Made by a program: the position numbers and the translations under genes. 64,000 nt of DNA from an uncultured SAR86 cluster bacterium. GTDB lineage: Bacteria; Pseudomonadota; Gammaproteobacteria; Magnimaribacterales; AG-339-G14. The DNA is taken from positions 1,550 through 65,549 of the forward strand of contig CABZRA010000002.1 in NCBI GenBank assembly GCA_902527995.1, in the 5' to 3' direction. Every line of letters begins with the position of its first letter. Position 1 is the stretch's first letter. The notes under the pieces are model-generated. The model saw only the letters and a program-made list of their open reading frames with translations, ran no database searches and was not told the origin of the DNA. Below, one piece after another: positions 26,161 through 61,704 of this stretch.

Positions 26161-27423
26161 TTAATTTTTAAATTTATTAACAATTTCATTAATCTTTATT
26201 ATTTCTTTTTGTTGATTCTTCCTCTTTATCAATTCAACAGATCGATCTCTTGATGTCTTTTCCCCAATGACCAATTGATACGGCACGCCCATTAGATTTG
26301 CATCTCTAAACTTAACCCCAGGGTTTAAGTCTCTATCATCAAAAAACACTTCTATATTATTTTCTTTTAGTTCTGAATAAAGCCTTTCTGCTTCAGAATT
26401 TATATTTTGATTGCCTTTTTGATTAATTAGAACGATATAGTATTTAAAAGGGGAAATGGACTCAGGAAATAATATTCCATCATCATCAAAATTTTGTTCA
26501 ATAGCAGCTGCAATAATCCTTGAAACTCCGATTCCGTAACAACCCATAAATATATCTTTTAAAACATTATCTTTTTGAACTGTTAGTCCCATTGCCTTAC
26601 TGTACTTCGTTCCTAATTCAAATATGTGACCGACCTCAATTCCTTTTTTAAGATTTAGTTTTCCATTTCCATCAGGACTAGACATTCCACTAATTTTTTT
26701 TGGATCCTTTTCATCTAATAGCTCAATATTTATTGCAAAATCACTTTTGTCACTAAATGCCAATGTATCCTCCCCAGAGTCAGCTAGGACATGAAATTCT
26801 TCAGATTTATCACCCCCAATTGATCCTGAGTCTGCAGAAACTATTCTGTAATCTAGTCCAATTCTATCAAATATCTTTTGATAAACTTTTTTCATATTTG
26901 AGTAAGTCTCATGCATCGAATTTTCATCAATATCAAACGAATATGCATCTTTCATTAAAAATTCTCTTGCTCTCATGACTCCAAATCTAGGTCTTATTTC
27001 GTCTCTAAATTTATCTTTTATCTGATAAAAAGTTTTTGGTAGATCCTTTGGGCTTGTAATTTCTTTTTTAGCTATATCAGTAATTATTTCTTCATGTGTT
27101 GGACCTAAATAAAAATCTCTTTGATTTCTATCCTTGAATCCAAGTAACTCAGGACCATACTCTTTCGATCTGCCTGATTGATCCCATAAATCTTTAGGTT
27201 GAACTAAAGGCATAATAATTTCTAAACAATTTCCATTATTAAGCTCTTCTCGAATAATATTTTCGACTTTTTTTAGTATTAAAGTTCCCAAAGGCAACCA
27301 ACTATAAATGCCTGATGCAATAGGCTTAATCATGTTAGCTTTAATCATTAATTTATGACTAATTAATTCTGTGTCAGAAGGCGTGTCCCTAAGAGTTTTG
27401 AAATGATATAAAGAAGCTTTCAT
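26161..27423 (-). CDS. proS: Prolyl-tRNA synthetase lacking the INS editing domain
   Basis: LGPTHEE, FRDEIRPRFGVMRAREF, GIEVGHIF, GCYGIGVSR; 420 aa. Confidence 0.97.
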   Translation of the reverse strand: MKASLYHFKTLRDTPSDTELISHKLMIKANMIKPIASGIYSWLPLGTLILKKVENIIREELNNGNCLEIIMPLVQPKDLWDQSGRSKEYGPELLGFKDRNQRDFYLGPTHEEIITDIAKKEITSPKDLPKTFYQIKDKFRDEIRPRFGVMRAREFLMKDAYSFDIDENSMHETYSNMKKVYQKIFDRIGLDYRIVSADSGSIGGDKSEEFHVLADSGEDTLAFSDKSDFAINIELLDEKDPKKISGMSSPDGNGKLNLKKGIEVGHIFELGTKYSKAMGLTVQKDNVLKDIFMGCYGIGVSRIIAAAIEQNFDDDGILFPESISPFKYYIVLINQKGNQNINSEAERLYSELKENNIEVFFDDRDLNPGVKFRDANLMGVPYQLVIGEKTSRDRSVELIKRKNQQKEIIKINEIVNKFKN

Positions 27424-40970: not shown

Positions 40971-41687
40971 ATGTTAGAAAGAAAAGAATTACTCAAGACT
41001 GGAAAAGCAAAATCTCTTTACCACACAGATGACCCATCTAAGTTAATTATGGAGTACAAAGACGATACATCAGCTTTTGATGGAAAAAAAATTGAACAAA
41101 TAGCTGGAAAGGGAACAGTTAATAACAGATTTAATAGCCACATTATGGAACACTTAAAAAAGAATGATATTCCCAATCATCATTTAGAAGTTTCAAATCC
41201 TAATGAAAGTGTAGTCTTATCTTTGGATATGTTTCCGATAGAATGTGTTGTAAGAAATTTTGCTGCAGGAAGCATCTGCAAAAGACTTGGTTTAGAGGAA
41301 GGTATGAAAATGGACCCTCCGATATTTGAATTTTTTTATAAAGATGATGATCTTGGAGATCCATTAATAAATGATTGTCATATTACTGCTTTTGGATGGG
41401 CCAACGAAAAGGACATAGAAGTAATGAAAGATTTAACTTTAAAAACAAATTTAATATTAGTTTCTCTTTTTGATGCAGCTGATTTAATCCTAGTAGATTT
41501 TAAAATTGAATTTGGGTTAGCTGATGGAAAAATTTTATTGGGCGATGAATTTACTCCTGATGGTTGTAGGGTCTGGGACAAAGAAACTAAAAAGAAGCTT
41601 GACAAAGACAGATTTAGATTAGGATTAGGAGACGTTGTAGAGTCTTACCAAGAGATTGCACACAGACTCGGAATTGATATTAGTTAA
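40971..41687 (+). CDS. purC: SAICAR synthetase
   Basis: GKAK, ECVVRN, LVDFKIEFG, DEFTPDGCRVWD, DKDRFR. Confidence 0.97.
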   Translation: MLERKELLKTGKAKSLYHTDDPSKLIMEYKDDTSAFDGKKIEQIAGKGTVNNRFNSHIMEHLKKNDIPNHHLEVSNPNESVVLSLDMFPIECVVRNFAAGSICKRLGLEEGMKMDPPIFEFFYKDDDLGDPLINDCHITAFGWANEKDIEVMKDLTLKTNLILVSLFDAADLILVDFKIEFGLADGKILLGDEFTPDGCRVWDKETKKKLDKDRFRLGLGDVVESYQEIAHRLGIDIS

Positions 41688-41765
41688 TTATTTTTCTAAA
41701 AAAATCTACTTTATTTCTTTTAATTTCTGTTTATTTTTTTATCGGTTACAATTGTAGTTCAAGTA

Positions 41766-43439
41766 ATGAGTTTTTTAAAAAATAATAAAAAAAAAACAGG
41801 TGCTGAACTTCTAGTTAAATGCCTGGAACAAGAAGGAGTGGAGTACATTTTTGGGTTACCTGGAGAAGAAAATCTAGACTTCCTTCAATATCTAAGTAAG
41901 TCCAATAAAATAAAGCTCATTTTAACCAGACATGAACAGGGAGCCGGTTTTATGGCTGCTACTTATGGTAAGTTGACAGGTAAGCCTGGGGTATGTCTTT
42001 CAACTCTTGGTCCTGGAGCCACTAACTTAGTAACTTCGGCAGCTTACGCTCAACTTGGGGGTATGCCCATGGTAATGATAACAGGCCAAAAACCAATAAA
42101 TAGCTCAAAGCAAGGAAAATTTCAGTTATTAGATGTAATTGATCTCATGCAACCTATTACAAAATTCACTAATCAGATCTCTTCAGCGAATATGATTCCA
42201 TCAAGAGTAAGAGAAGCTTTTAGACTGGCTGTAGAGGAACGTCCAGGAGCGGTCCATTTGGAATTACCAGAAGATATTGCAGTGGATAAAACTCGAAGAA
42301 TCCCTTTGCCTAAAAGCATAACCAGAAGACCTATTGCAGACGAAAAAGTAATTATGCAAGCAATTGAACTTATAGAAAAAGCAAAAAAACCTGTCCTAGT
42401 TTTAGGGGGAGGCGCAAATAGAACACTAACAAATAAAATGCTTTTAGAATTTGTTGAAAAAACTAACGTTCCCTTTATCACCACTCAACTGGGTAAGGGT
42501 GTTTTAGATGAAAGACATGAAAACTTTCTTGGATGTGCAGCTTTATCTTCAGGTGATTTTGTTCATCGTGCAATTGAAGAATCAGACTTGATAATAACTG
42601 TCGGACACGATGAAATTGAAAAACCTCCTTTTATTATGACAGAACATGATCGGAGGAAAGTTATCCATATTAACCACAGCTCGGCCAGCATTGATGCAAT
42701 TTATTTTCCTCAATTAATGGTAGTCGGAGACATTGCAAACTCCATTTGGCAAATAAAAGAAAAGATAAAAGTTAACCCCGATTGGGATTTTTCTAAAATG
42801 CTTAAGTCTAGACAAGCTCATCTTGAGCATTCAAAAAAAATTAGAGATGACGACAGATTTCCTATCTTTCCTCCTTATTTAGTAAGGCAAATAAGAAATG
42901 TTATGCCTTCAGATGGAATAATTACTCTAGATAATGGTGTATATAAGCTCTGGTTTGCTAGAGGTTACCCCGCTCTTAATAGAAATACAGTTATTCTAGA
43001 TAACGCTCTTGCAACGATGGGCGCAGGATTACCATCTGCAATTACAGCATCAATGATATTTCCAGACAAGAAAGTTATATCTGTTTGTGGCGATGGAGGC
43101 TTTATGATGAATAGCCAAGAGCTAGAAACAGCAGTTAGGTTAGGTACAAATCTGACAGTAATTATTTTAAACGATAAAGCTTATGGAATGGTTAAGTGGA
43201 AGCAAGAAAATATGGAGTTTTCTGATTTTGGATTAAGTTTTGAAAATCCTGATTTTGTAAAATATGCAGAAGCTTATGGAGCAAAGGGTTATACAATAAC
43301 TAATGCAAAAGATTTGGCTCTTACAGTTGAAAACTGTATTAACTCAACCGGAGTTAATGTGATCGACTGTCCAATTGATTACAGCGAGAATGACAAGATT
43401 TTGAATAAAGACTTAAAAAAAATAAGTTCTTCTTTATAA
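41766..43439 (+). CDS. ThDP-dependent acetolactate-synthase-like enzyme, putative 2-oxoglutarate decarboxylase
   Basis: CLEQEGVEYIFGLPGEENL, RHEQGA, STLGPGATN, GDGGFMMNSQE..N; N-terminus resembles cyanobacterial OGDC; no small subunit adjacent. Family is secure, substrate is inferred. Confidence 0.7.
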   Translation: MSFLKNNKKKTGAELLVKCLEQEGVEYIFGLPGEENLDFLQYLSKSNKIKLILTRHEQGAGFMAATYGKLTGKPGVCLSTLGPGATNLVTSAAYAQLGGMPMVMITGQKPINSSKQGKFQLLDVIDLMQPITKFTNQISSANMIPSRVREAFRLAVEERPGAVHLELPEDIAVDKTRRIPLPKSITRRPIADEKVIMQAIELIEKAKKPVLVLGGGANRTLTNKMLLEFVEKTNVPFITTQLGKGVLDERHENFLGCAALSSGDFVHRAIEESDLIITVGHDEIEKPPFIMTEHDRRKVIHINHSSASIDAIYFPQLMVVGDIANSIWQIKEKIKVNPDWDFSKMLKSRQAHLEHSKKIRDDDRFPIFPPYLVRQIRNVMPSDGIITLDNGVYKLWFARGYPALNRNTVILDNALATMGAGLPSAITASMIFPDKKVISVCGDGGFMMNSQELETAVRLGTNLTVIILNDKAYGMVKWKQENMEFSDFGLSFENPDFVKYAEAYGAKGYTITNAKDLALTVENCINSTGVNVIDCPIDYSENDKILNKDLKKISSSL

Positions 43440-43557
43440 AAGTTGTCTTTTGCATTATTTTTTAAAATAATTTTAAAAACAGTTATTCTCAAAGGATTGT
43501 GATCTTTATCTAATATATAATTAAGTAAAAAGTTTATCGTAGATAGGGAGAAATATA

Positions 43558-44946
43558 ATGATTGAATCTGAGTCTAATAAATCCATTGATTTATCAATTA
43601 AAGAACTCGTAAAAAGTGCTCGTACAGCGCAAAAAAAATATGAACTTTTTAATCAAGATAAGGTAGATGCAATTGTTCGAGATATAGGTAAGTTTGTTTA
43701 CGATAATGCAGAACCACTCGCAAAAATGGCTGTCGATGAGACAGAAATGGGATCTTTTGAGGATAAAATCTTAAAAAATAAAAGCAAGGCGCGAGTTATT
43801 TGGAATAATTTAAAGGATAAGAAATCTCGTGGAGTTATTGGAGAAGATTCTGAAAGCAATCTAGTTTATGTCGCGAAACCGATGGGAGTAGTTGCTGCAG
43901 TTACTCCCGTGACAAATCCAATTGTAACGCCGATGTGTAATGGAATGTTCGCATTAAAGACAGGAAATGCCGTTATTTTTGCGGCTCATCCAAAGGCTCA
44001 AAAATGTGCTGAGTTTCTCACACAAGAGTTTATGAAAATTGTTAAATCTCATGATGGTCCGGATAATCTAATTCAAGTTGTCACTAAGGGATCTGTTGAA
44101 AAGACGCAAGAATTAATGCAAAGCGTAGATGTTGTAGTGGCTACCGGCGGAGGAGCAATGGTTAAATCTGCTTACTCATCAGGAAAACCCTCCTTTGGAG
44201 TTGGAGCAGGAAACGTCCCTGTAATAATAGATCGAAATATAGATTTAAAAGAAGCTGTTGAAAAAATTATTGATGGAGCATCTTTTGATCATGGAATTAT
44301 TTGCTCTCACGAACAGTTTGTATTTGCTCCGGAAGAAAACTTTGACAAGACAATTGAATTATTCACAAATTCTGGAAAAGTTTGGTTCACTGATGATCAA
44401 AGCCAAATAAAAAAATTACGCGATGTTGTTTTTCAGGATGGAAACTTAAACAAAGATGTTGTAGGAAAATCTGCAAGTGATGTAGGAAAATTAGCAGGAG
44501 TCGAAGTTCCAGACACATCTAGATTAATTCTTTTGCCCGCAGATGGATCTGGTACCCAAGATGTTCTTGCAAAAGAAAAACTTTGTCCAGTAATTGCAAT
44601 TGTTCCATACAAAACTTTTGAAGATGCTGTCAGTATGGCTAAATCAAATCTTCTTGTTGAGGGCGCAGGTCATTCAGCTGCTTTGCACTCCAATAATGAC
44701 CAAAATATAGAAAAAGCTGGATTAGAATTACCTATCAGTCGTCTTGTAGTTAATCAGCCAAGTTCTACTTCTGCAGGTGGGTCTTTAACAAATGGTTTTG
44801 CACCAACAACTACTTTGGGTTGTGGCTCCTGGGGTGGAAATTCTATTTCTGAAAATCTTGACTATAAACACCTTATGAACGTATCACGAATTGGTAAAAT
44901 AATTCCCGATAAAAAAGTGCCTACAGATGAAGAAATCTGGTCATAA
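43558..44946 (+). CDS. CoA-acylating aldehyde dehydrogenase, succinate-semialdehyde dehydrogenase (acylating)/succinyl-CoA reductase type
   Basis: TPVTNPIVTPMCN, ATGG, GIICSHEQ, EGAGH, LPISRLVVNQP, TTTLGCGSWG, C-terminal KVPTDEEIW, closely resembling my recollection of Clostridium kluyveri SucD; SD GGGAG. Confidence 0.82.
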   Translation: MIESESNKSIDLSIKELVKSARTAQKKYELFNQDKVDAIVRDIGKFVYDNAEPLAKMAVDETEMGSFEDKILKNKSKARVIWNNLKDKKSRGVIGEDSESNLVYVAKPMGVVAAVTPVTNPIVTPMCNGMFALKTGNAVIFAAHPKAQKCAEFLTQEFMKIVKSHDGPDNLIQVVTKGSVEKTQELMQSVDVVVATGGGAMVKSAYSSGKPSFGVGAGNVPVIIDRNIDLKEAVEKIIDGASFDHGIICSHEQFVFAPEENFDKTIELFTNSGKVWFTDDQSQIKKLRDVVFQDGNLNKDVVGKSASDVGKLAGVEVPDTSRLILLPADGSGTQDVLAKEKLCPVIAIVPYKTFEDAVSMAKSNLLVEGAGHSAALHSNNDQNIEKAGLELPISRLVVNQPSSTSAGGSLTNGFAPTTTLGCGSWGGNSISENLDYKHLMNVSRIGKIIPDKKVPTDEEIWS

Positions 44947-45147
44947 ATTTAATTTACTTTGCATAATCAATTTTATATTTGCTTAATTTTCTGGACGAAG
45001 CTCTTGGAAAAAAAGTCTTTAGACATTCTTAACTAAAATTTAAAACCCTGTAAGGATATAAGCTTTAATTTTTCTGTCGTTACACTTGATCAAATAACAT
45101 ATTCTCAATATGTAATATGATAAAATTTTTGATGTAGTTACTTATTC

Positions 45148-46581
45148 ATGAAAAACAAATTAAGAGATAAATATCCTCTCTATTTAGCTAATGAACCTTT
45201 ACAACCTAATGCTAATTTAAAAGTAGAAGATAAATATACGGGCGAGGCAGTCACATCTGTAGCTTTGGCTGACGCAGAAATAATCGAAAGAGCAATTGTA
45301 GCAGCAGATGATTGCTTTGAAAAAATGGTCAATATGGCTTCTTACGAAAGGCAAGAAGTTCTTTTACACTGCGTTCAAAGATTTAGAGAAGATTTCGATG
45401 AATTCGCATATGCTTTATGTGTAGAAGCGGGAAAGCCTATAAGAGATTCTAGGGGAGAAGTAAGTCGACTCATAGATACTTTTAAAATTGCTGCTGAAGA
45501 ATCAACAAGAATCTATGGAGAGATTCAGCCTCTCGATATAAGTGAAAGAGCAAAAGGATACAGAGGAATGTGGAAAAGAGTTCCTATTGGCCCTTGCTCG
45601 TTTATTTCACCTTTTAATTTTCCATTAAATCTTGCAGCACATAAAATTGCTCCTGCCATTGCCGCGGGATGCCCCTTTGTAATGAAACCAGCTTCCAAGA
45701 CGCCTTTAGGAGCGATACTCATTGGAGGGATTTTGGCAGAAACAAATTTGCCTAAAGGAGCATTTTCTATTTTACCAGCTTCGAGGGATGGTTCTGATCT
45801 TTTCACAACAGATGAAAGATTTAAGCTTTTATCGTTTACTGGTTCTCCAGAAGTAGGTTGGGATTTAAAAGCAAGGTCTGGAAAGAAAAAAGTTGTTCTC
45901 GAATTAGGAGGAAATGCTGCAGTAATTATTGATAAAGATTCAGATATTGATTCAGTTGTTGACAGAGTAATTTTTGGTGCATTTTACCAGTCAGGTCAGT
46001 CTTGTATCAGCGTACAAAGAGTAATTGTGCATGAAAAAATTTACGACAAATTTAAAAAAAACTTTGTTGAAAAAACTAAAAAACTTATATCTGGAGATCC
46101 CAAATTAGAGACGACTTTCATTGGCCCTATGATTTCTCTTTCGGAAGCGGAAAGGTTAGACGAATGGATAAAAGACTCACTTCTCAAGGGCGCTAAAGTT
46201 TTATGTGGCGGGAATCGAAAAGATTCAATGATCGAAGCAACAATTTTAGAAAATGTAGATAGAACCTCAGAAGTTTATGCTGAAGAAGCTTTTGGACCTA
46301 TAGCAATTTTGTCAAAATTCTCAAATTTTAATTCCGCTTTAGACGAAGTAAATGATTCTAAATTCGGTCTTCAAGCTGGAATTTTTACAAAAAATATTGA
46401 TAAAGCATTCTTAGCTTGGGATAAATTAGAAGTTGGCGGAATTATTATTGGAGATGTGCCTAGCTATAGGGTCGATAATATGCCTTATGGTGGAGTTAAA
46501 GATTCTGGTATTGGTAGAGAAGGGATTAAATTTGCTATAGAAGATATGACTGAAATAAGAAACCTCGTTATCAAGACCTAA
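45148..46581 (+). CDS. ALDH21-type aldehyde dehydrogenase, putative NADP+ succinate-semialdehyde dehydrogenase
   Basis: SFISPFNFPLNL, KPAS, LELGG, FYQSGQSC (Cys286), PSYRVD, PYGGVKDSG. Confidence 0.78.
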   Translation: MKNKLRDKYPLYLANEPLQPNANLKVEDKYTGEAVTSVALADAEIIERAIVAADDCFEKMVNMASYERQEVLLHCVQRFREDFDEFAYALCVEAGKPIRDSRGEVSRLIDTFKIAAEESTRIYGEIQPLDISERAKGYRGMWKRVPIGPCSFISPFNFPLNLAAHKIAPAIAAGCPFVMKPASKTPLGAILIGGILAETNLPKGAFSILPASRDGSDLFTTDERFKLLSFTGSPEVGWDLKARSGKKKVVLELGGNAAVIIDKDSDIDSVVDRVIFGAFYQSGQSCISVQRVIVHEKIYDKFKKNFVEKTKKLISGDPKLETTFIGPMISLSEAERLDEWIKDSLLKGAKVLCGGNRKDSMIEATILENVDRTSEVYAEEAFGPIAILSKFSNFNSALDEVNDSKFGLQAGIFTKNIDKAFLAWDKLEVGGIIIGDVPSYRVDNMPYGGVKDSGIGREGIKFAIEDMTEIRNLVIKT

Positions 46582-46703
46582 TTTTTATTTTACAAAGAGT
46601 TAAATATTTTTCATTATTATTTTGAATTATTTTTTAAGTTGAAGTAATTACTAAGAACTTTTGATTATAATAAGCATATTCTTTATTAAATTTTATTTGT
46701 ATG

Positions 46704-46736
46704 TACCTTTTTCTAAAGGTAAATTGTGGTACAATT
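46704..46736 (+). promoter_or_regulatory. isc promoter with two adjacent inverted repeats
   Basis: TACCTTT-N4-AAAGGTA (46704-21) and AATTGT-N3-ACAATT (46722-36); the second overlaps the extended -10 TGGTACAAT, which ends 6 nt before the ATG. Confidence 0.6.
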
Positions 46737-46741
46737 CTTGA

Positions 46742-48166
46742 ATGGATAAAAAGTACCTTTTTAAAAGAAATAATGTCTGGTGGGTTAAACTCGCTGTACC
46801 TTTTCACCTCCGAGACAAGCTAGGTTTCGATCTAAGGAAATCAACAGGTGAAAAAGACTTAGAAAAAGCTCTTTTAATAAGAGACGGAATTATTTCTGAG
46901 CTTAAATCTAAGTTTCTACCTTATTCTAAAGAAACTCAGCCTAATGAAGCTTCTTTTAATGAAAAGACTACTTACTTTGATTATGCTTCAACAACACCCG
47001 TTGATGAAAGAGTAATCGAAAAAATGAAAGATTGTTTGTCTTTTGAAGGAGCCTTTGGAAACTCAGGTTCAAGATCGCATGTTTACGGTTGGAAGGCTGA
47101 AGAATTAGTCGAAGAGGCGCGTGTGAATGTTTCTGAACTTCTAAATTGTGATCCAAGAGAGATCATTTGGACTTCAGGAGCTACTGAATCAGATAATCTT
47201 GCCATTAAAGGAGCAGCTAACTTTTATCAATCAAAGGGGAAACATATAATTACGTCAAAAATTGAACATAAAGCTGTTTTAGATGTATGCAGACAGCTAG
47301 AGAAAGAAAATTTTGAAATCACTTATCTAGATCCAGACGAAAACGGCGTCATTCCTCCTGATGCTGTCAAAAAAGCTATCAGAGAAGACACTGTTCTGGT
47401 TTCTTTGATGCATATAAATAACGAGATCGGTGTTATCAACGATATAGAAGAAATAGGCAACATAACAAGAGAAAATAACGTTATATTTCATGTCGATGCA
47501 GCTCAAAGCGCTGGAAAAATTCCCATTGATCTAAGCTTACTTAATGTGGATTTAATGTCTTTTTCAGCACATAAAATTTATGGCCCTAAGGGAATTGGCG
47601 CTTTATACATTAGAAGAAAACCTAGAATTAGACTCCAGCCTCTTTTTCATGGAGGCGGCCAAGAAAGAGGTATCAGAGCTGGTACTCTACCAACACACCA
47701 AATTGTGGGAATGGGAGAGGCTTTTAGGATTGCCAATGAACAAATGGAAATTGATCATCAAAGGCTTCTTAATTTCAGATCTACCCTTTGGAACGGATTA
47801 AAAGATATGGAAGAAATTTACGTTAATGGAGCAATAAGCAATAGTTTTCCAGGAATATTTAATTTGTCTTTTAATTTCGTCGAAGGAGAGTCTCTAATTA
47901 TGGCTTTAAAAAATATTGCAGTTTCGTCTGGATCCGCTTGCACTTCTGCAAGTTTGGAGCCTTCTTATGTTTTAAGAGCTCTCGGGAGACCAGATGAATT
48001 AGCTCACAGCTCTATTAGATTTTCTTTTGGAAGATTCACCAAAAAAGAAGAGGTAGAGAATACAGTAAATTTAGTCAAAAACTCTGTTTCTCAATTAAGG
48101 GAAATCTCACCTTTATGGGAGATGTATCAAGATGGAATTGATTTAGATAAAATAGAGTGGGCTTAG
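46742..48166 (+). CDS. iscS: Cysteine desulfurase IscS with N-terminal DUF6538-like DNA-binding extension
   Basis: [42 protein letters not shown]; about 75 extra N-terminal residues. Confidence 0.95.
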
Positions 48167-48191: not shown

Positions 48192-48614
48192 ATGGCGTAT
48201 TCTCAAAAAGTAGTTGAAAAGTTTGAGCAAACTTTAAATAATCCAAAAAAAGCAAGTGTGGGTCGTTGGAAACCAGGGGATAAAGATTTTCACCGTGTAG
48301 GCACTGGTATTGTAGGCGCTCCTGCTTGTGGTGACGTAATGAAATTACAGGTTAAGTGTGAAAATATAGATGGAAAAAACGTGATTGTAGATGCAAAATT
48401 TAAAACTTATGGTTGTGGCTCTGCCATAGCTTCCAGCGGTCAATTAATAGATATGCTAATAGGCAAAACCATTGAAGAAGCGCAAAAAATTTCAAATCAA
48501 GAAATAGTAGATATATTAGAGCTACCGGCTATTAAAATACATTGCAGTGTTCTTGCAGAAGAGGCAATACACAGAGCTATAGATGATTTTAAAAGTCGAA
48601 GAAATAATGATTAA
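48192..48614 (+). CDS. iscU: Fe-S scaffold IscU
   Basis: MAYSQKV, GAPACGDVM, GCGSAIASS, KIHCSVLAE; SD GAGG. Confidence 0.95.
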   Translation: MAYSQKVVEKFEQTLNNPKKASVGRWKPGDKDFHRVGTGIVGAPACGDVMKLQVKCENIDGKNVIVDAKFKTYGCGSAIASSGQLIDMLIGKTIEEAQKISNQEIVDILELPAIKIHCSVLAEEAIHRAIDDFKSRRNND

Positions 48615-49342
48615 TGCCCAAAATAAAGATTTTACCTCATGAAGAACTTTGCCCTAATGGTGCTGAGATTGAAGCAACCGTGGGCAAATCAGTATGTGAA
48701 AATCTACTCGATAACGAAATAGATTTAGAACACGCCTGTGAGCTTTCTTGTGCTTGCACTACTTGCCACGTTATTTTCAAAGAAGGTTTTGACTCTTTGA
48801 ACGAATCGACCGATGACGAAGAGGATTTACTTGATAAAGCATGGGGACTTGAACCCAAATCAAGACTTAGTTGCCAAACTATAGTTGATGAAAACGATCT
48901 AACTATTGAAATTCCAAAATATACAATTAATATGGTTTCTGAAATTCATCCAAAAAAAGAGAGCAAAGCGACACAAATGGAAAAAAAACTTAGTAAGAAA
49001 GATTTCAGTTTATCTAACAGTGCTGTTAATCATATATCCAACCTTTTAGAAAAAAATAAGTCTTCTGGTGTTAGGGTAAGTGTAAAGTCATCTGGATGCT
49101 CTGGATATGCATACGATCTTTCCTTTGTTCAAAAAGCTGAACAAGACGACTATAAAGCAAGCGTTGAAGATATAAACCTATATATTAGCGAAGAAAGCCT
49201 TATATTTTTAAAAGGAACTGAAATTGATTATGTAACTAAAGGTCTAAATTCAGAGTTGATATTTAACAATCCAAACATTTCTGCTAAATGTGGTTGTGGA
49301 GAGAGCTTTAGTATTGATCAAAATTTATTTCAAAAAGCATAA
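48614..49342 (+). CDS. fdx: ISC [2Fe-2S] ferredoxin fused to A-type carrier IscA
   Basis: N-terminal HACELSCACTTCH...SRLSCQ; C-terminal SGCSG...NPN..CGCGESF. Confidence 0.9.
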   Translation: MPKIKILPHEELCPNGAEIEATVGKSVCENLLDNEIDLEHACELSCACTTCHVIFKEGFDSLNESTDDEEDLLDKAWGLEPKSRLSCQTIVDENDLTIEIPKYTINMVSEIHPKKESKATQMEKKLSKKDFSLSNSAVNHISNLLEKNKSSGVRVSVKSSGCSGYAYDLSFVQKAEQDDYKASVEDINLYISEESLIFLKGTEIDYVTKGLNSELIFNNPNISAKCGCGESFSIDQNLFQKA

Positions 49343-56300: not shown

Positions 56301-56344
56301 TCCTTCAAAACAACTTAATATAATGCTTAAAACTTTGCTTGAAT

Positions 56345-56716
56345 ATGTCTAAACCGCCTCTTTTTTTAAACTTATTAAAGATAAGATTACCTATCACTGC
56401 AAAAGCTTCTATAACTCACAGAATTTCAGCGGTAGGAGTATTTTTTTTGATTTTTCCATTCATGGGAGCAGTATTAATAGCTACTAGCTCTCCAGATGGT
56501 TTTAATTATATGCAAGATTTAAGGAATTCTTTTTTTGTAAAAACTTTACTTAACCTCTTCATAGCAGGTTTGACCTTTCATTACATTGCTGGTCTAAGGC
56601 ACTTGGTAATGGATTTTGGTTTTTGGGAGACTTTTAAAGCTGGTTCACTGAGCGCTTATGGTACTTTTTTTATAAGCGGAATTTTAATTATTTATTTTTC
56701 AACCTTAATATGGTGA
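56345..56716 (+). CDS. sdhC: Succinate dehydrogenase cytochrome b556 subunit
   Basis: SITHRIS, HYIAGLRHLVMD; ATG 56345 preferred. Confidence 0.92.
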   Translation: MSKPPLFLNLLKIRLPITAKASITHRISAVGVFFLIFPFMGAVLIATSSPDGFNYMQDLRNSFFVKTLLNLFIAGLTFHYIAGLRHLVMDFGFWETFKAGSLSAYGTFFISGILIIYFSTLIW

Positions 56717-57072
56717 CCAAGCTTTATTCTCTTAAAAGGACTGGGATTTTTGATTATCTCATGGTTAGAGTATCAGCGGTTTTTCAAGCCCTATATTTTT
56801 CAGTTATAACCTATTATTGGTTAACGTATATGCCAGTAAATTACACTCAGCTGATCGGTTTTTTTGATATTCTATTCGTGAAAGTAGGGACTTTATTAGT
56901 TTTAATATCGATTTCTTATCACTCGTTACAAGGTATTCATCATATTATTGAAGATTATTTAACCGAGGCAAGAGTTGGTAACGCTGCTAGATTTCTCCAG
57001 ATTTCTGTTTTATCTTTCAGTTATCTACAAATTTTAGGAGCTATAATTTGCACTATTTTCATAATAATTTAG
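56710..57072 (+). CDS. sdhD: Succinate dehydrogenase anchor subunit
   Basis: RVSA, H...G....EDY; three TM helices. Confidence 0.88.
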   Translation: MVTKLYSLKRTGIFDYLMVRVSAVFQALYFSVITYYWLTYMPVNYTQLIGFFDILFVKVGTLLVLISISYHSLQGIHHIIEDYLTEARVGNAARFLQISVLSFSYLQILGAIICTIFIII

Positions 57073-57081
57073 GAATTTAAT

Positions 57082-58884
57082 ATGGCAATGAATGGAAAAG
57101 GATATCTGGATGCATCTAGCTTACCTGTTAAAGAATTTGATGGGATTATAGTTGGCGGTGGTGGCTCCGGCCTCATGGCAGGACTTCAACTCGCTCAATC
57201 AGGAATGAATACTGCAGTAGTATCCAAAGTATTTCCGACGAGGTCTCATACTGTGTCTGCTCAAGGAGGTATTACTTGTGCCATAGCAAGCGCTGATCCC
57301 GATGATGACTGGAGATGGCACATGTACGATACCGTTAAAGGCTCGGATTTCATTGGAGATCAAGATTCAATTGAATATATGTGTCAAGAAGGGCCAGCAA
57401 CTGTATTTGAACTAGAGAATATGGGTTTGCCTTTTTCTAGAACCGAAGAAGGAAAAATATATCAAAGAGCTTTTGGGGGACAATCAAAAGATTACGGCAA
57501 AGGAGGTCAAGCTGAGAGAACTTGTGCAGCTGCTGACAGAACAGGTCATGCTCTTTTGCATACACTTTATCAAGCTAACATTAAAGCGGGCACTAACTTT
57601 CTAAGTGAGTGGTTTGCGGTAGATCTGGTTTTAAATGACTCTAATCAAGTCACTGGAGTCATAGCTTTTGAAATTGAATCAGGCGAAGCTTACTTTTTGA
57701 AAGCTAAAGCAACAGTTTTAGCTACTGGAGGAGCGGGGAGAATTTACAAATCCACTACCAATGCTTTAATAAATACTGGAGATGGAACTGGAATGGCTCT
57801 CAGAGCTGGATTGGCAGTTCAAGACATGGAAATGTGGCAATTCCATCCTACAGGAATTCATGGAGCAGGAACTTTAGTTACAGAAGGCTGTCGCGGAGAA
57901 GGTGGATATCTAATTAATAAAGACGGTGAAAGATTTATGGAGCGTTACGCTCCTAATGCTAAGGATCTTGCAAGCAGAGATGTTGTGGCAAGGTCTATGA
58001 TGCTTGAGATAATTGAAGGAAGAGGTTGTGGACCAGATAAAGATCATTGCTATCTAAAACTTGATCATCTTGGAGCGGATCTTTTACATAAAAGACTTCC
58101 TGGAATTACTGAGCTTTCCAAAACATTTGCTCATATAGATCCAGCAGATCATCCCATTCCAGTTGTACCGACCTGCCATTACGCAATGGGAGGTATTCCA
58201 ACAAATGTTCATGGTCAAGTTATTACGCAGCAAGCAGATGGTTCAGATAAAATTGTCGATGGCTTGTATGCTGCTGGAGAAGCAGCTTGTGTCTCTGTGC
58301 ATGGAGGAAATCGTTTAGGTGGAAATTCATTATTAGATTTGGTTGTTTTTGGTAGGTCTGCAGGACTTCACATCGAGGACTCCTTTAAACAAGGCATAGG
58401 CATCTCTGAACCTACTAGTGAAAATATTAATGAAGTCTTAAAAAATATTAATCGTGTAAATTCAAGTAAAGATGGCGAGAATTCTTCAGCAATAAAAAAA
58501 GATTTACAAGAGGTTATGCAATTAAGTTTTGGAGTTTTTAGAAGCGCCAAAAACATGGAGGAAGGAATACAACAAATTAATGATATTAGAGAAAGATCTG
58601 AAGGACTTTATTTAGCTGATAAATCCTCAAAATTTAATACTGCTAGAGTTGAAGCTCTCGAGCTACTTAACTTATTAGAAGTCGCTGAAGCAACTGCAAT
58701 ATGCGCGAACGAAAGAAAGGAAAGTAGAGGCGCCCATTCCAGAGATGATTATCCAGAAAGGGATGATGAAAACTGGCTCAAACATTCAATTTATTTTAAG
58801 GAAACAAAAGAAGTCTCAAAAAGAGATGTAAATTTTAGACCTAAAATTGTTCAAGCTTTCCAACCTTTTGCCAGAACTTATTAA
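57082..58884 (+). CDS. sdhA: Succinate dehydrogenase flavoprotein
   Basis: [35 protein letters not shown]. Confidence 0.98.
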
Positions 58885-59621
58885 TGAATAGTATCGCTGC
58901 AGAACAACTAAAGACTTTAAAAATTAGTATCTATAGATACGACCCCGATATTGGTAAAAAACCATACATGCAGAGTATGGATATAGATATCCCTAAAGAT
59001 AAAGACATAATGGTTCTTGACGCGCTGCAGCTTGCAAAGGAGATTGATCCAACAATATCCTTCAGAAGATCATGCAGAGAAGGTGTGTGCGGTTCCGATG
59101 GAATGAATATTAACGGTAAAAACGGACTAGGATGTATTACTCCTCTTTCAGAGGCCGTTAGAGGAAACAAGCTTGAATTAAGACCCCTCCCTGGCCTACC
59201 TGTAGTGAAAGACCTAATCGTTGACATGACACAGTTCGTTGATCAATATAAAAAAATTCAACCTTATCTAATAACTGATAAAGAGACTAATGGGAAAGAA
59301 ATACCTCAAACAGTTGAAGATAGAGATAAATTAGATGGCTTGTACGAATGTATTATGTGCGGGTGTTGTTCGACTGCTTGCCCGTCTTTTTGGTGGAATC
59401 CTGACAAATTTCTCGGACCTGCTGCTCTTCTTCAAGCTTATAGGTTCATTTCTGATAGTAGAGACGTTGCAACCGAAGAAAGATTAGACCAATTAGAAGA
59501 TGCTTTCAGTGTTTTTAGATGTCACGGAATTATGAACTGCGTATCTGTTTGTCCTAAAGGATTGAATCCAAACAAAGCGATCAACGAAATTAAAAAAATG
59601 TTGTTCAAAAGAGCCGTTTAG
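58884..59621 (+). CDS. sdhB: Succinate dehydrogenase Fe-S subunit
   Basis: SCREGVCGSD, CIMCGCCSTACP, CHGIMNCVSVCP. Confidence 0.98.
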   Translation: MNSIAAEQLKTLKISIYRYDPDIGKKPYMQSMDIDIPKDKDIMVLDALQLAKEIDPTISFRRSCREGVCGSDGMNINGKNGLGCITPLSEAVRGNKLELRPLPGLPVVKDLIVDMTQFVDQYKKIQPYLITDKETNGKEIPQTVEDRDKLDGLYECIMCGCCSTACPSFWWNPDKFLGPAALLQAYRFISDSRDVATEERLDQLEDAFSVFRCHGIMNCVSVCPKGLNPNKAINEIKKMLFKRAV

Positions 59622-59674
59622 ATTAATTATAGTTCCTTTTTTTATCATTCCTTCTTTGCTACTATTCATGCAGG

Positions 59675-60835
59675 TTGAATTTACACGAATATCAAGCAAA
59701 ATTTCTTTTTAAAAGTTACGGTTTACCTGTTTCAAAATCAGAATTAATTTTTCAAGAGTCTGATATCGATCAGGCAATATTAAAACTTAATGTTGATTCA
59801 TTTGTAGTTAAAGCACAAGTTCATGCGGGCGGTAGAGGTAAAGCAGGAGGAGTTATTCTTACTAAAGAGAAAGAAGAGATTAGAGATTTTTGCCAAAAAT
59901 GGTTAGGAACTAATTTAATTACTTATCAAACTGATGAAAAGGGACAACCTGTATCCTGCATACTCTTAGAGGAGTGCACGGATATAGAAACAGAGTTATA
60001 TTTAGGATTAGTGATCGACAGAAGTTCTAGGTCTATTGCAGTAATTGCATCTCCAGACGGCGGAGTTGACATTGAATCGGTTGCTAAAAATAATCCAGAG
60101 AAAATATTTAAAGTATTTTTAGATTCGTCTTACAAAATTAAAGATAATGAAATAAAGAAACTTTCTGACGGGTTGGAATTAAATAAAAGTCAGAATTTAG
60201 AATTTTGTTCTCTGATAAATAATCTTATTAACTTATTTGTTGATAAGGATTTTTCTCTTATTGAAATAAACCCCCTAGTAATTGATAGCTCCGGCAAACT
60301 TAATTGCTTAGATGGAAAAATTAATGTTGATGGTAATGCGTTGTATCGTCAAGAAGAAATTTGTGAAATGCGGGATGAATCTCAAGAAGATGCCTTAGAG
60401 CTAGATGCATCAAAGTGGGGGCTAAATTATGTAACATTAGATGGAACTGTCGGTTGTATGGTGAATGGAGCAGGATTGGCAATGGGCACTATGGATATTA
60501 TTAAGCTTTCTGGTGGTTTTCCTGCTAACTTTTTAGATGTTGGAGGTGCAGTAAACAGAGAAAGCGTCACAGAAGCATTTAAAATTATCGTTTCTGATTC
60601 TAAAGTTAAATCAATTTTAATAAATATCTTTGGTGGTATAGTCCGATGTGACGTAGTGGCCGAAGGAATAGTGTACGCTATGCAAGATATAGGGATTCAA
60701 ATTCCTGTCGTGGTTCGTTTAAAAGGAAATAATTCTGACATAGCTAAAAAGATTCTTGAAAAAAGTGAACTTAATATTTTTTCAGAATCAGATTTAACTC
60801 GCGCTGCAAAAAAAGCCGTTGATTTATCAAAATGA
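59675..60835 (+). CDS. sucC: Succinyl-CoA synthetase beta subunit
   Basis: MNLHEYQAK (TTG start), [33 protein letters not shown]. Confidence 0.97.
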
Positions 60836-61704
60836 GTATTCTTATTGATAATCAAACTATCGCAATATGTCAGGGGTTCACTGGTTCTCAGGCAACTCTG
60901 CACTGTTCCCAATCTATAGAGTATGGAACAAATATCGCTGGAGGAGTAACACCAGGAAAAGCTGGGCAAACCCACTTAAATCTTCCTGTATTCGAAAATG
61001 TTTCTCAAGCAGTTAAAGAAACTGGTGCAGATACTTCTTTAATATTCGTACCAGCCCAATTTTGTAAGAACTCTATTAATGAAGCTTTAGACTCTGAATT
61101 AAAGTTGATTATAGTTATTACTGAAGGTGTACCAACTTTAGATATGCTTTATTTAAAAGCAAAAGCAGATGAAATGGGAATTAGGATTATTGGACCAAAC
61201 TGTCCAGGTGTAATAACACCGGAACAAGCAAAGCTGGGAATTATGCCGGCTAGTATTCACAACAAGGGGAAGGTAGGGATCGTCTCTAGATCTGGAACTC
61301 TTACTTATGAAGCAGTGGATCAAACCTCTAAGGAAGGTCTAGGACAATCCAGTTGTGTAGGTATTGGCGGCGACCCTATACCAGGCTCTAGCTTTATAGA
61401 TATTCTAGAAATGTTTGAACAAGATCCTGAAACAGAAGGTATCGTGATGGTTGGTGAAATTGGAGGTACAGCCGAAGAGGAAGCAGCGGAATTTATTAAA
61501 GAAAAAGTTTCAAAGCCAGTTGTTTCTTATATAGCTGGAGTAAGTGCTCCTCCAGGAAAAAGAATGGGACATGCGGGTGCAATCATCTCTGGTGGTAAGG
61601 GTACAGCAGAAGATAAATTTAATGCGTTAGAAAAAGCAGGAATTAGAATAGTCAAGAGTCCTGCAGACATTGGAAAAGCTATTTCTGAAGAAATAAACCC
61701 TTGA
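60832..61704 (+). CDS. sucD: Succinyl-CoA synthetase alpha subunit
   Basis: [33 protein letters not shown]. Confidence 0.98.

Follow-up and report, generated by a model that had tools for sequence, protein, structure and literature searches.

The 64,000-nucleotide stretch of an uncultured SAR86 cluster genome analysed here (contig CABZRA010000002.1; the whole stretch is referred to as the window) carries three genes between purC and iscS, all transcribed from the plus strand: one for a thiamine diphosphate (ThDP)-dependent enzyme (gene 1), one for a CoA-acylating aldehyde dehydrogenase similar to SucD of Clostridium kluyveri (gene 2), and one for a non-acylating dehydrogenase of the ALDH21 type (gene 3). 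The first two form a module that occupies the position held in related genomes by korCAB, an operon for a 2-oxoacid:ferredoxin oxidoreductase (OFOR; here Kor). Module and Kor are mutually exclusive in the family, the module has been exchanged between genera together with iscS, and the active-site pocket residues of its products are conserved. Judging from the sequences, the pair probably takes over the role of korCAB at this locus and makes succinyl-CoA from 2-oxoglutarate (2-OG).

The genome of the window (G000) is 71% complete, and gene absence is therefore judged on its relatives, in a sample of 50 genomes of the family. A SucD-like gene is present in 12 of these, each of which also has the ThDP gene (81–100% identity); two further genomes (G024 and G032) have a more distant ThDP copy beside an ALDH21 gene. 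An OFOR alpha subunit scores over cut-off in 33 of the 50, comprising none of the 12 module genomes and 33 of the 38 others. The five genomes with neither system are all 60–78% complete, and the 14 genomes that are at least 90% complete divide into eight with Kor only and six with the module only, with none having both and none having neither. Fisher tests (p 5e-8) count kin as independent and are not used as evidence. From the one-contig assembly G056 (L157) a segment of about 13 kb is missing that would carry most of korCA as well as hisS, ispG and the isc genes; the assembly was set aside as a candidate closed genome with a broken Kor and no module, as this is probably an assembly gap, hisS, ispG and the isc genes being missing as well.

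The exchange occurs in place. Loci were fetched for 22 of the 33 Kor genomes and all 12 module genomes, and in each of these 34 the neighbour of purC is either korB or the ThDP gene. All 22 Kor loci have korB-korA-korC beside purC, and 21 extend to iscS, with one contig ending earlier. In the module loci the ThDP gene lies directly 3' of purC (12/12), and is followed by the SucD-like gene in nine, the latter being elsewhere in the genome in the other three.

The displaced enzyme is not 2-oxoglutarate dehydrogenase (OGDH), as the first-pass annotation had proposed, since SucA and any E2 are absent from all 50 family genomes and the module displaces korCAB. That annotation had correctly noted that the sdh-suc operon of the window lacks sucAB and retains sucCD: sdhB ends at 59621 and sucC starts at 59675, and the 53 bp gap leaves no room for sucAB. 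Intact sucAB genes in relatives, which would contradict a replacement, are likewise absent from the 50 genomes; the anti-correlation with the module holds for Kor. Similarly, lipoate independence is true of the pair and is not what changed, as there is no E2 in the family and LipA passed the cut-off in none of five genomes tested. With OGDH already gone and an OFOR displaced, what the exchange gains is freedom from Fe-S clusters rather than from lipoate.

The displaced operon encodes an OFOR alpha subunit (TIGR03710, 586 bits against a cut-off of 483), a beta subunit (196, below the model cut-off of 262) and a flavoprotein of the GltD type that has Fe-S domains; judged by its domains a KorCAB unit would hold about five [4Fe-4S] clusters. 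KorAB has its best PDB match in 6N2N, which we take to be the Magnetococcus 2-oxoglutarate:ferredoxin oxidoreductase (OGOR). KorB has a lysine at the position of 6N2N Arg63, the same as the enzyme in 5B48, presumably a broad-range OFOR. Azoarcus evansii reportedly has a three-subunit 2-oxoglutarate:NADP+ oxidoreductase with OFOR alpha and beta subunits and a GltD-like Fe-S flavoprotein, from which the label KorC is taken here; it serves as the model for korCAB, that is, for the enzyme lost, and the SAR86 form has an additional DUF6538-like domain. The putative Kor substrate is 2-OG.

In an order-wide set of 171 genomes, two of the four families have SucA and two, f1 (the family of the window) and its sister f2, have an OFOR instead. 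SucA is found in 72 of 75 f3 and 20 of 23 f4 genomes and in none of 38 f1 or 34 f2 genomes, and OFOR in 28 of 38 f1 and 30 of 34 f2 genomes. Families f1 and f2 appear to correspond to RedeBAC7D11 and Magnimaribacteraceae, and the SucA and OFOR pattern agrees with Table S5 of Ramfelt et al. 2024 (PMC11582366), which lists porA in only half of the genomes of two RedeBAC7D11 genera and sucCD in 92–100%. The ThDP and SucD pair is present in four of the 34 f2 genomes. In G131 the order is purC-ThDP-SucD-iscR-like-iscS with no Kor, and G119 has the same arrangement from a cut ThDP gene onward; these two genomes are 76–80% complete and their IscS lacks the DUF6538 domain. Altogether, the pair replaces Kor in 14 of the 16 genomes that hold it.

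Gene 1 encodes a protein with the three-domain ThDP fold of acetolactate synthases (Pfam TPP N, M and C domains, catalytic E57, and GDGG at 442) and scores 858 bits against NCBIfam NF006187/PRK08322 (cut-off 509). Following the numbering given for the Microcystis 2-oxoglutarate decarboxylase (KGD) in PMC10418658, with a constant +8 offset over 382–531 and no full alignment, 12 of 17 KGD residues checked are identical in gene 1, including Lys386 (K394) and Lys471 (K479); the IlvB of G000 itself has glutamine at both lysine positions. No cyanobacterial OgdA is named among the matches listed from protein and plasmid collections. The NCBIfam family name, the database labels and the best PDB matches, all acetolactate synthases, would make gene 1 such an enzyme, which is hardly credible: it falls below the cut-offs for biosynthetic and catabolic acetolactate synthases (TIGR00118, 382 < 538; AlsS-type models, 461 < 510 and 410 < 551), a separate ilvB lies on contig C8 of G000 (TIGR00118, 804 > 538) with a small-subunit-sized open reading frame downstream, ilvB-like matches occur across the whole family, and the exclusion with Kor would be left unexplained.

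The best PDB match of gene 2 is 8CEI, annotated as 'succinate-semialdehyde dehydrogenase (acetylating)', at E 4e-161, compared to E 6e-93 for AdhE. Residues K73, K77, T119, C249, S250, H372 and T404 correspond to K66, K70, T112, C242, S243, H364 and T395 of C. kluyveri SucD (CkSucD), and CkSucD Thr365 is Ser373 in gene 2. Lys70 and Ser243 are described as carboxylate ligands in CkSucD, and together with Thr395 as opening the pocket relative to PduP (PMC10249356); AdhE has alanine at the positions of both K70 and S243. Among 90 aligned SucD-like rows (two of them exact duplicates, and possibly one more) K73, K77, T119, C249, S250 and H372 are invariant, and position 404 is leucine in 56, threonine in 19, phenylalanine in 13 and another residue in two. 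All 14 genomes that lack Kor and hold the pair (12 in f1 and two in f2) have Thr404, and Leu404 is present in the Kor-keeping f2 genome G086 and two Woeseiaceae relatives; in G139 the gene ends before the site.

The shared absence of pyruvate dehydrogenase (PDH) raises an alternative in which the slot serves pyruvate, with KorCAB as a broad-range OFOR and the pair as a pyruvate decarboxylase and an acetylating acetaldehyde dehydrogenase that bypass the missing PDH. In its favour are the KorB lysine shared with 5B48, the lack of any E2, and the retention of SucA alongside Kor in most of the f3 genomes that have Kor. Table S5 of PMC11582366 likewise gives aceE and aceF as 0 in RedeBAC7D11, and for the Suzuki G03 genus the sum of porA (0.40) and aceE (0.47) matches sucA (0.87), a hint that porA and aceE are complementary. 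We nonetheless consider the pyruvate alternative improbable, because gene 2 keeps the carboxylate ligands K70 and S243 where AdhE has alanines, gene 1 keeps the two KGD lysines, and cyanobacterial KGDs gave no turnover of pyruvate in the assays reported (PMC10418658). At the level of families Kor also goes with a lack of SucA, and loss of PDH seems to be tolerated, with Suzuki G10 listed as having aceE in only 32% of genomes and no porA (PMC11582366). The Kor loci of f3 (L216–L223), compared with the PDH position, lie away from it in accessory contexts; korCAB has the character of an accessory operon there, and its copy in G114 lacks the DUF6538 head.

Gene 3 most closely matches three uncharacterised bacterial aldehyde dehydrogenase structures in the PDB followed by moss ALDH21 (5MZ5, E 1e-165), with succinic semialdehyde dehydrogenases (SSADHs) of the GabD/ALDH5 type at E 1e-84 or weaker and TIGR01780 at 330, below 646. 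Its R107, Y280 and R441 align with Arg121, Tyr296 and Arg457 of Physcomitrium ALDH21A1 (5MZ5 chain, 18-residue offset), an NADP+-linked SSADH of the moss gamma-aminobutyrate shunt (5MZ5; bioRxiv 10.64898/2026.01.13.699213), whereas gene 3 is an optional third gene. The first-pass annotation had described three co-oriented genes of these families converging on succinic semialdehyde (SSA), and the reading frames, the profile and PDB matches and the convergence itself agree with it. Its treatment of them as a single unit does not stand: ALDH21-type genes are found in three of 50 family genomes and within the slot only in G000 (one of 12 module genomes), no SucD gene is present at 37 metagenome loci of ALDH21 relatives, and the triad recurs at one of 80 distant SucD-like loci, in another gene order. 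The three-gene unit was therefore rejected as a conserved system. The one recurrence, in a Novosphingobium metagenome-assembled genome (L078, 2658–7389), is arranged as ThDP-ALDH21-SucD, and its SucD-like gene encodes Leu404.

Pairs of ThDP and ALDH21 genes are common, being present at 14 of the 37 metagenome loci, and G024 and G032 hold such a pair without SucD and keep Kor (2/2). In these two genomes the pair sits at another site near aspS (L128 in G024, L130/L131 in G032) with Kor intact; the ThDP gene of G032 is fragmented over two contigs. Since ThDP with ALDH21 coexists with Kor in both and ThDP with SucD replaces it in 14 of 16, these data suggest that succinyl-CoA rather than succinate is the needed product. 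A GabD-type SSADH scored over cut-off in none of five genomes tested, four of them module genomes, and the SucD-like enzyme is thus the sole evident SSA sink in most module genomes. The ALDH21 enzyme of G000 probably serves as a dispensable overflow that drains SSA irreversibly.

One could suppose that only a cyanobacterial-type shunt from 2-OG through SSA to succinate matters here, and that the acylating enzyme acts on something else or works in the opposite direction. The abundance of ThDP and ALDH21 pairs, the location of SucD outside the slot in three of 12 module genomes and the characterisation of CkSucD as a reductase (PMC10249356) are in keeping with this. We regard it as very unlikely, however, as 11 of the 12 module genomes lack ALDH21, no GabD passed the cut-off in the four of them tested, SucD is present in 12/12 even where unlinked, and acquisition of ThDP with ALDH21 alone left Kor in place.

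The predicted pathway would retain the thioester. Isocitrate would be converted to 2-OG, gene 1 would split 2-OG to CO2 and SSA, and gene 2 would oxidise SSA via a thioester on Cys249 to succinyl-CoA and NAD(P)H, with SucCD conserving the thioester energy of succinyl-CoA. The net reaction, 2-OG + CoA + NAD(P)+ to succinyl-CoA + CO2 + NAD(P)H, would equal that predicted for KorAB with the GltD-like subunit, from a module that would be free of Fe-S clusters and has 3.2 kb of genes as compared to about 4.9 kb. The substrates of both enzymes, the direction and cofactor of the SucD reaction, and what would have favoured the exchange (a saving of iron, or tolerance of oxidants) are predictions. The two-protein route to succinyl-CoA put forward in the first-pass annotation gains support from the in-place mutual exclusion with Kor and from the active-site residues. 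NADP-dependent isocitrate dehydrogenase (IDH) of the dimeric type was confirmed in two module genomes, and the monomeric type was found in none of five genomes searched.

Several points weigh against the assignment of the pair to 2-OG and succinyl-CoA. In gene 1, five of the 17 KGD positions differ (Q254 to S, V382 to N, A384 to V, H385 to Y and L467 to M), the KGD pocket lysines are attributed on the basis of docking and not mutants (PMC10418658), and the trees held no cyanobacterial OgdA sequence. In gene 2, His251 stands in place of CkSucD Ser244, as it does in 89 of the 90 rows, and the ThDP gene is missing from 78 of the 80 distant SucD-like loci. The f2 genomes G086 and G139 hold the pair downstream of fdx and keep an intact Kor; they are either counter-examples to strict exclusion or intermediates. 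Pyruvate is a possible Kor substrate: PDH is missing from the family as well, and of the eight f3 genomes with Kor six have SucA too. Isocitrate lyase (ICL) is present in all four near-complete genomes tested, so that cells might get by without Kor by using the glyoxylate shunt; neither IDH nor ICL was seen in G000, which is 71% complete. Two iron-economy proxies are uninformative, which leaves cofactor content as the support for a putative iron motive: class I fumarase is absent from all 50 genomes and does not discriminate, and nine weak 'flavodoxin' matches (eight in module genomes) were rejected as a signal, because they represent one haem-operon gene (Pfam Flavodoxin_5) that scored at the threshold and is also present in a Kor genome. 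This flavodoxin-fold gene, presumably HemG, is 89–100% identical among six module genomes of genus g4 and about 70% identical to that of the g4 Kor genome G035 (L170–L178); either a second allele has been exchanged or the pattern may just reflect kinship.

Some of these points would fit a different history, in which the pair degrades another 2-oxoacid or aldehyde (e.g. sulfoacetaldehyde or a longer dicarboxylic semialdehyde) and is carried along with the iscS allele, while Kor was simply lost because the glyoxylate shunt suffices. ICL is indeed present, most SucD-like relatives have Leu or Phe at position 404 and other neighbours, and iscS does travel with the cassette. There seems little chance of this being correct, in that none of the 14 near-complete genomes lacks both systems, a second in-place replacement occurred in f2 without the IscS fusion, and Thr404 follows the loss of Kor. 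As to sulfoacetaldehyde, gene 2 is below the cut-offs of SauS (394 < 600) and SafD (351 < 700), and Xsc is absent from the best 25 of 51 models. With regard to neighbours, seven SucD-like loci (L059, L061, L066, L086, L087, L088 and L094), mostly in Novosphingobium, have the gene divergent to another aldehyde dehydrogenase that is GabD-like by eye, and about 15 others are near E1/E2 2-oxoacid dehydrogenase genes.

The pair that takes the place of Kor has moved among genera. In a tree of six flanking genes from 33 genomes (G001 was left out for lack of sequence) the four genera are monophyletic, G000 groups with the Kor genome G007 as its sister, the Kor/module state needs at least seven changes, and a single module clade is rejected (p-AU 1e-9). 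KorA follows the genera, and the IscS tree mixes them, with monophyly rejected for g4 (p 4e-9) and g1 (p 0.02) and not for g2 (p 0.10). IscS of G000 and G010, module genomes of different genera, are 94.7% identical, versus 69.6% for the Kor genomes G007 and G021 of the same two genera, and G000 and G007 share 82.9% identity in IscS and 93.6% in DapA. These relationships point to movement of the cassette together with iscS by recombination.

An unusual feature of the module genomes is a head of about 75 residues on IscS (12/12), which aligns with the DUF6538-like N-terminus of KorC. It is 76% identical over 58 aa to KorC of G006, although the Pfam DUF6538 score is 22 (below 27) on the G000 IscS head and 31.6 (above 27) on KorC; IscS of Kor genomes is 401–416 aa and none has the head. 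That a KorC-derived domain sits on the IscS of module genomes indicates that Kor is the older state in the family. A simple inversion as the origin of the fusion is not favoured, the DNA upstream of the fusion resembling, by eye, the iscS-side promoter of Kor genomes. A paired TGTACC...GGTACA box is located at most 60 nt from the start in every one of the 12 module genomes, and the G000 assembly as a whole has a single copy; upstream of iscS in Kor genomes the paired box is found in 0/21, with TGTACC half-sites in all. Rrf2/IscR was found in none of four near-complete f1 genomes and in the one f2 genome examined. As a side observation, the f2 replacements keep an iscR-like gene and have no DUF6538 domain, and f1 apparently lacks IscR.

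Each part of the proposed route has a known relative. The closest is the cyanobacterial OgdA/SsaD bypass (Synechococcus PCC 7002 A2770/A2771, PMC5160925; Microcystis MaKGD, PMC10418658), which shares a ThDP decarboxylase similar to acetolactate synthases that converts 2-OG to SSA, the residue spacing and, with five of the 17 listed positions different, the two pocket lysines; as described there it ends in succinate via a non-acylating SSADH, whereas here the constant partner is CoA-acylating, the predicted product is succinyl-CoA, and an OGOR is replaced in a heterotroph. The closest solved relative of gene 2, CkSucD (PDB 8CEI/J/K; PMC10249356), has the same catalytic Cys and His, Lys70, Ser243 and Thr395, but is presented as an NADPH-dependent succinyl-CoA reductase, unlike gene 2, which is predicted to be oxidative, has His for Ser244 and comes from a marine bacterium.

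The Mycobacterium tuberculosis Kgd is a SucA-like protein. KOR and KGD of that organism are reminiscent of the present case in that 2-OG can leave by either a ferredoxin oxidoreductase or a decarboxylase in a fatty-acid-oxidising aerobe (PMC2773412); both routes are reported in one cell, with the SSA route replacing succinyl-CoA, whereas in SAR86 they are alternative alleles of one locus.

Pyruvate decarboxylase with an acetylating acetaldehyde dehydrogenase is an engineered PDH bypass in yeast; the logic is the same, a decarboxylase plus an acylating aldehyde dehydrogenase being equivalent to a 2-oxoacid dehydrogenase, with a different substrate and by engineering rather than natural replacement. 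In the open full-text literature, subscription papers and bioRxiv supplements being outside this scope, we found no natural route of decarboxylase plus acylating SSADH, in SAR86 or elsewhere, and no description of the combination as a citric-acid-cycle route.

If the assignment is correct, the thioester is kept on the way to succinyl-CoA, unlike in the cyanobacterial and mycobacterial SSA shunts, and two small proteins free of metal clusters suffice, which would be useful for synthetic pathways. It would also fill a gap in published SAR86 reconstructions, where sucCD is kept without OGDH or OGOR in half of the genomes of two genera, suggest what a large family wrongly labelled 'acetolactate synthase' does, and provide alleles with shared flanks whose frequencies in ocean metagenomes can be compared with iron, depth and oxygen. 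A broader scenario can be offered tentatively, as one we would not yet favour: the decarboxylase and oxidative SucD, requiring neither lipoate nor Fe-S, would be a third natural way from 2-OG to succinyl-CoA beside OGDH and OGOR, an exchangeable allele among SAR86 genera that is favoured where iron is scarce or oxidants cause stress, with the Leu-to-Thr pocket change tuning it for SSA and the DNA-binding head of KorC passed to IscS where IscR is absent.

Features of the window discussed in the text, with positions counted from its first nucleotide.
Feature	Coordinates	Strand	Remarks
Gene 1, ThDP-dependent enzyme, PRK08322 family	41766..43439	+	557 aa; predicted 2-oxoglutarate decarboxylase (OgdA/KGD-like); core of the exchanged module
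Gene 2, CoA-acylating aldehyde dehydrogenase, SucD-like	43558..44946	+	462 aa; predicted SSA + CoA + NAD(P)+ to succinyl-CoA; core of the exchanged module
Gene 3, non-acylating ALDH21-type dehydrogenase	45148..46581	+	477 aa; predicted NADP+-linked SSA to succinate; accessory
purC, left flank of slot	40971..41687	+	TIGR00081
Inverted-repeat box TGTACC...GGTACA	46702..46733	.	predicted operator, just 5' of the IscS fusion
DUF6538-like N-terminal domain fused to IscS	46742..46975	+	homologue of the N-terminal part of KorC, the subunit lost here
iscS, right flank, moves with the module	46742..48166	+	TIGR02006
sdhCDAB-sucCD operon without sucAB	56339..61704	+	NCBIfam matches for sdhA, sdhB, sucC and sucD; sdhC and sdhD by position and sequence

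The intergenic gaps are 118 bp between genes 1 and 2 and 201 bp between genes 2 and 3. A sigma-70 promoter scan gave matches at chance level (20, with 17.5 +/- 4.6 expected), and the promoter and terminator scan was dropped as evidence of shared transcription because of the chance-level counts. The gap between purC and the ThDP gene (41688–41765) is 78 bp in G000 and 0–8 bp in each of the remaining 11 module genomes, a spacing from which it seems that read-through from the dapA-bamC-purC run into the ThDP gene may occur in those 11. Elsewhere in the window, the prolyl-tRNA synthetase (26161–27423) is a short form of 420 aa from which the editing insertion is apparently missing. The ferredoxin and IscA-like genes form one fused 242-aa reading frame (48614–49342), as they also do in genera g1, g2 and g4, and are separate in genus g3 and family f2.

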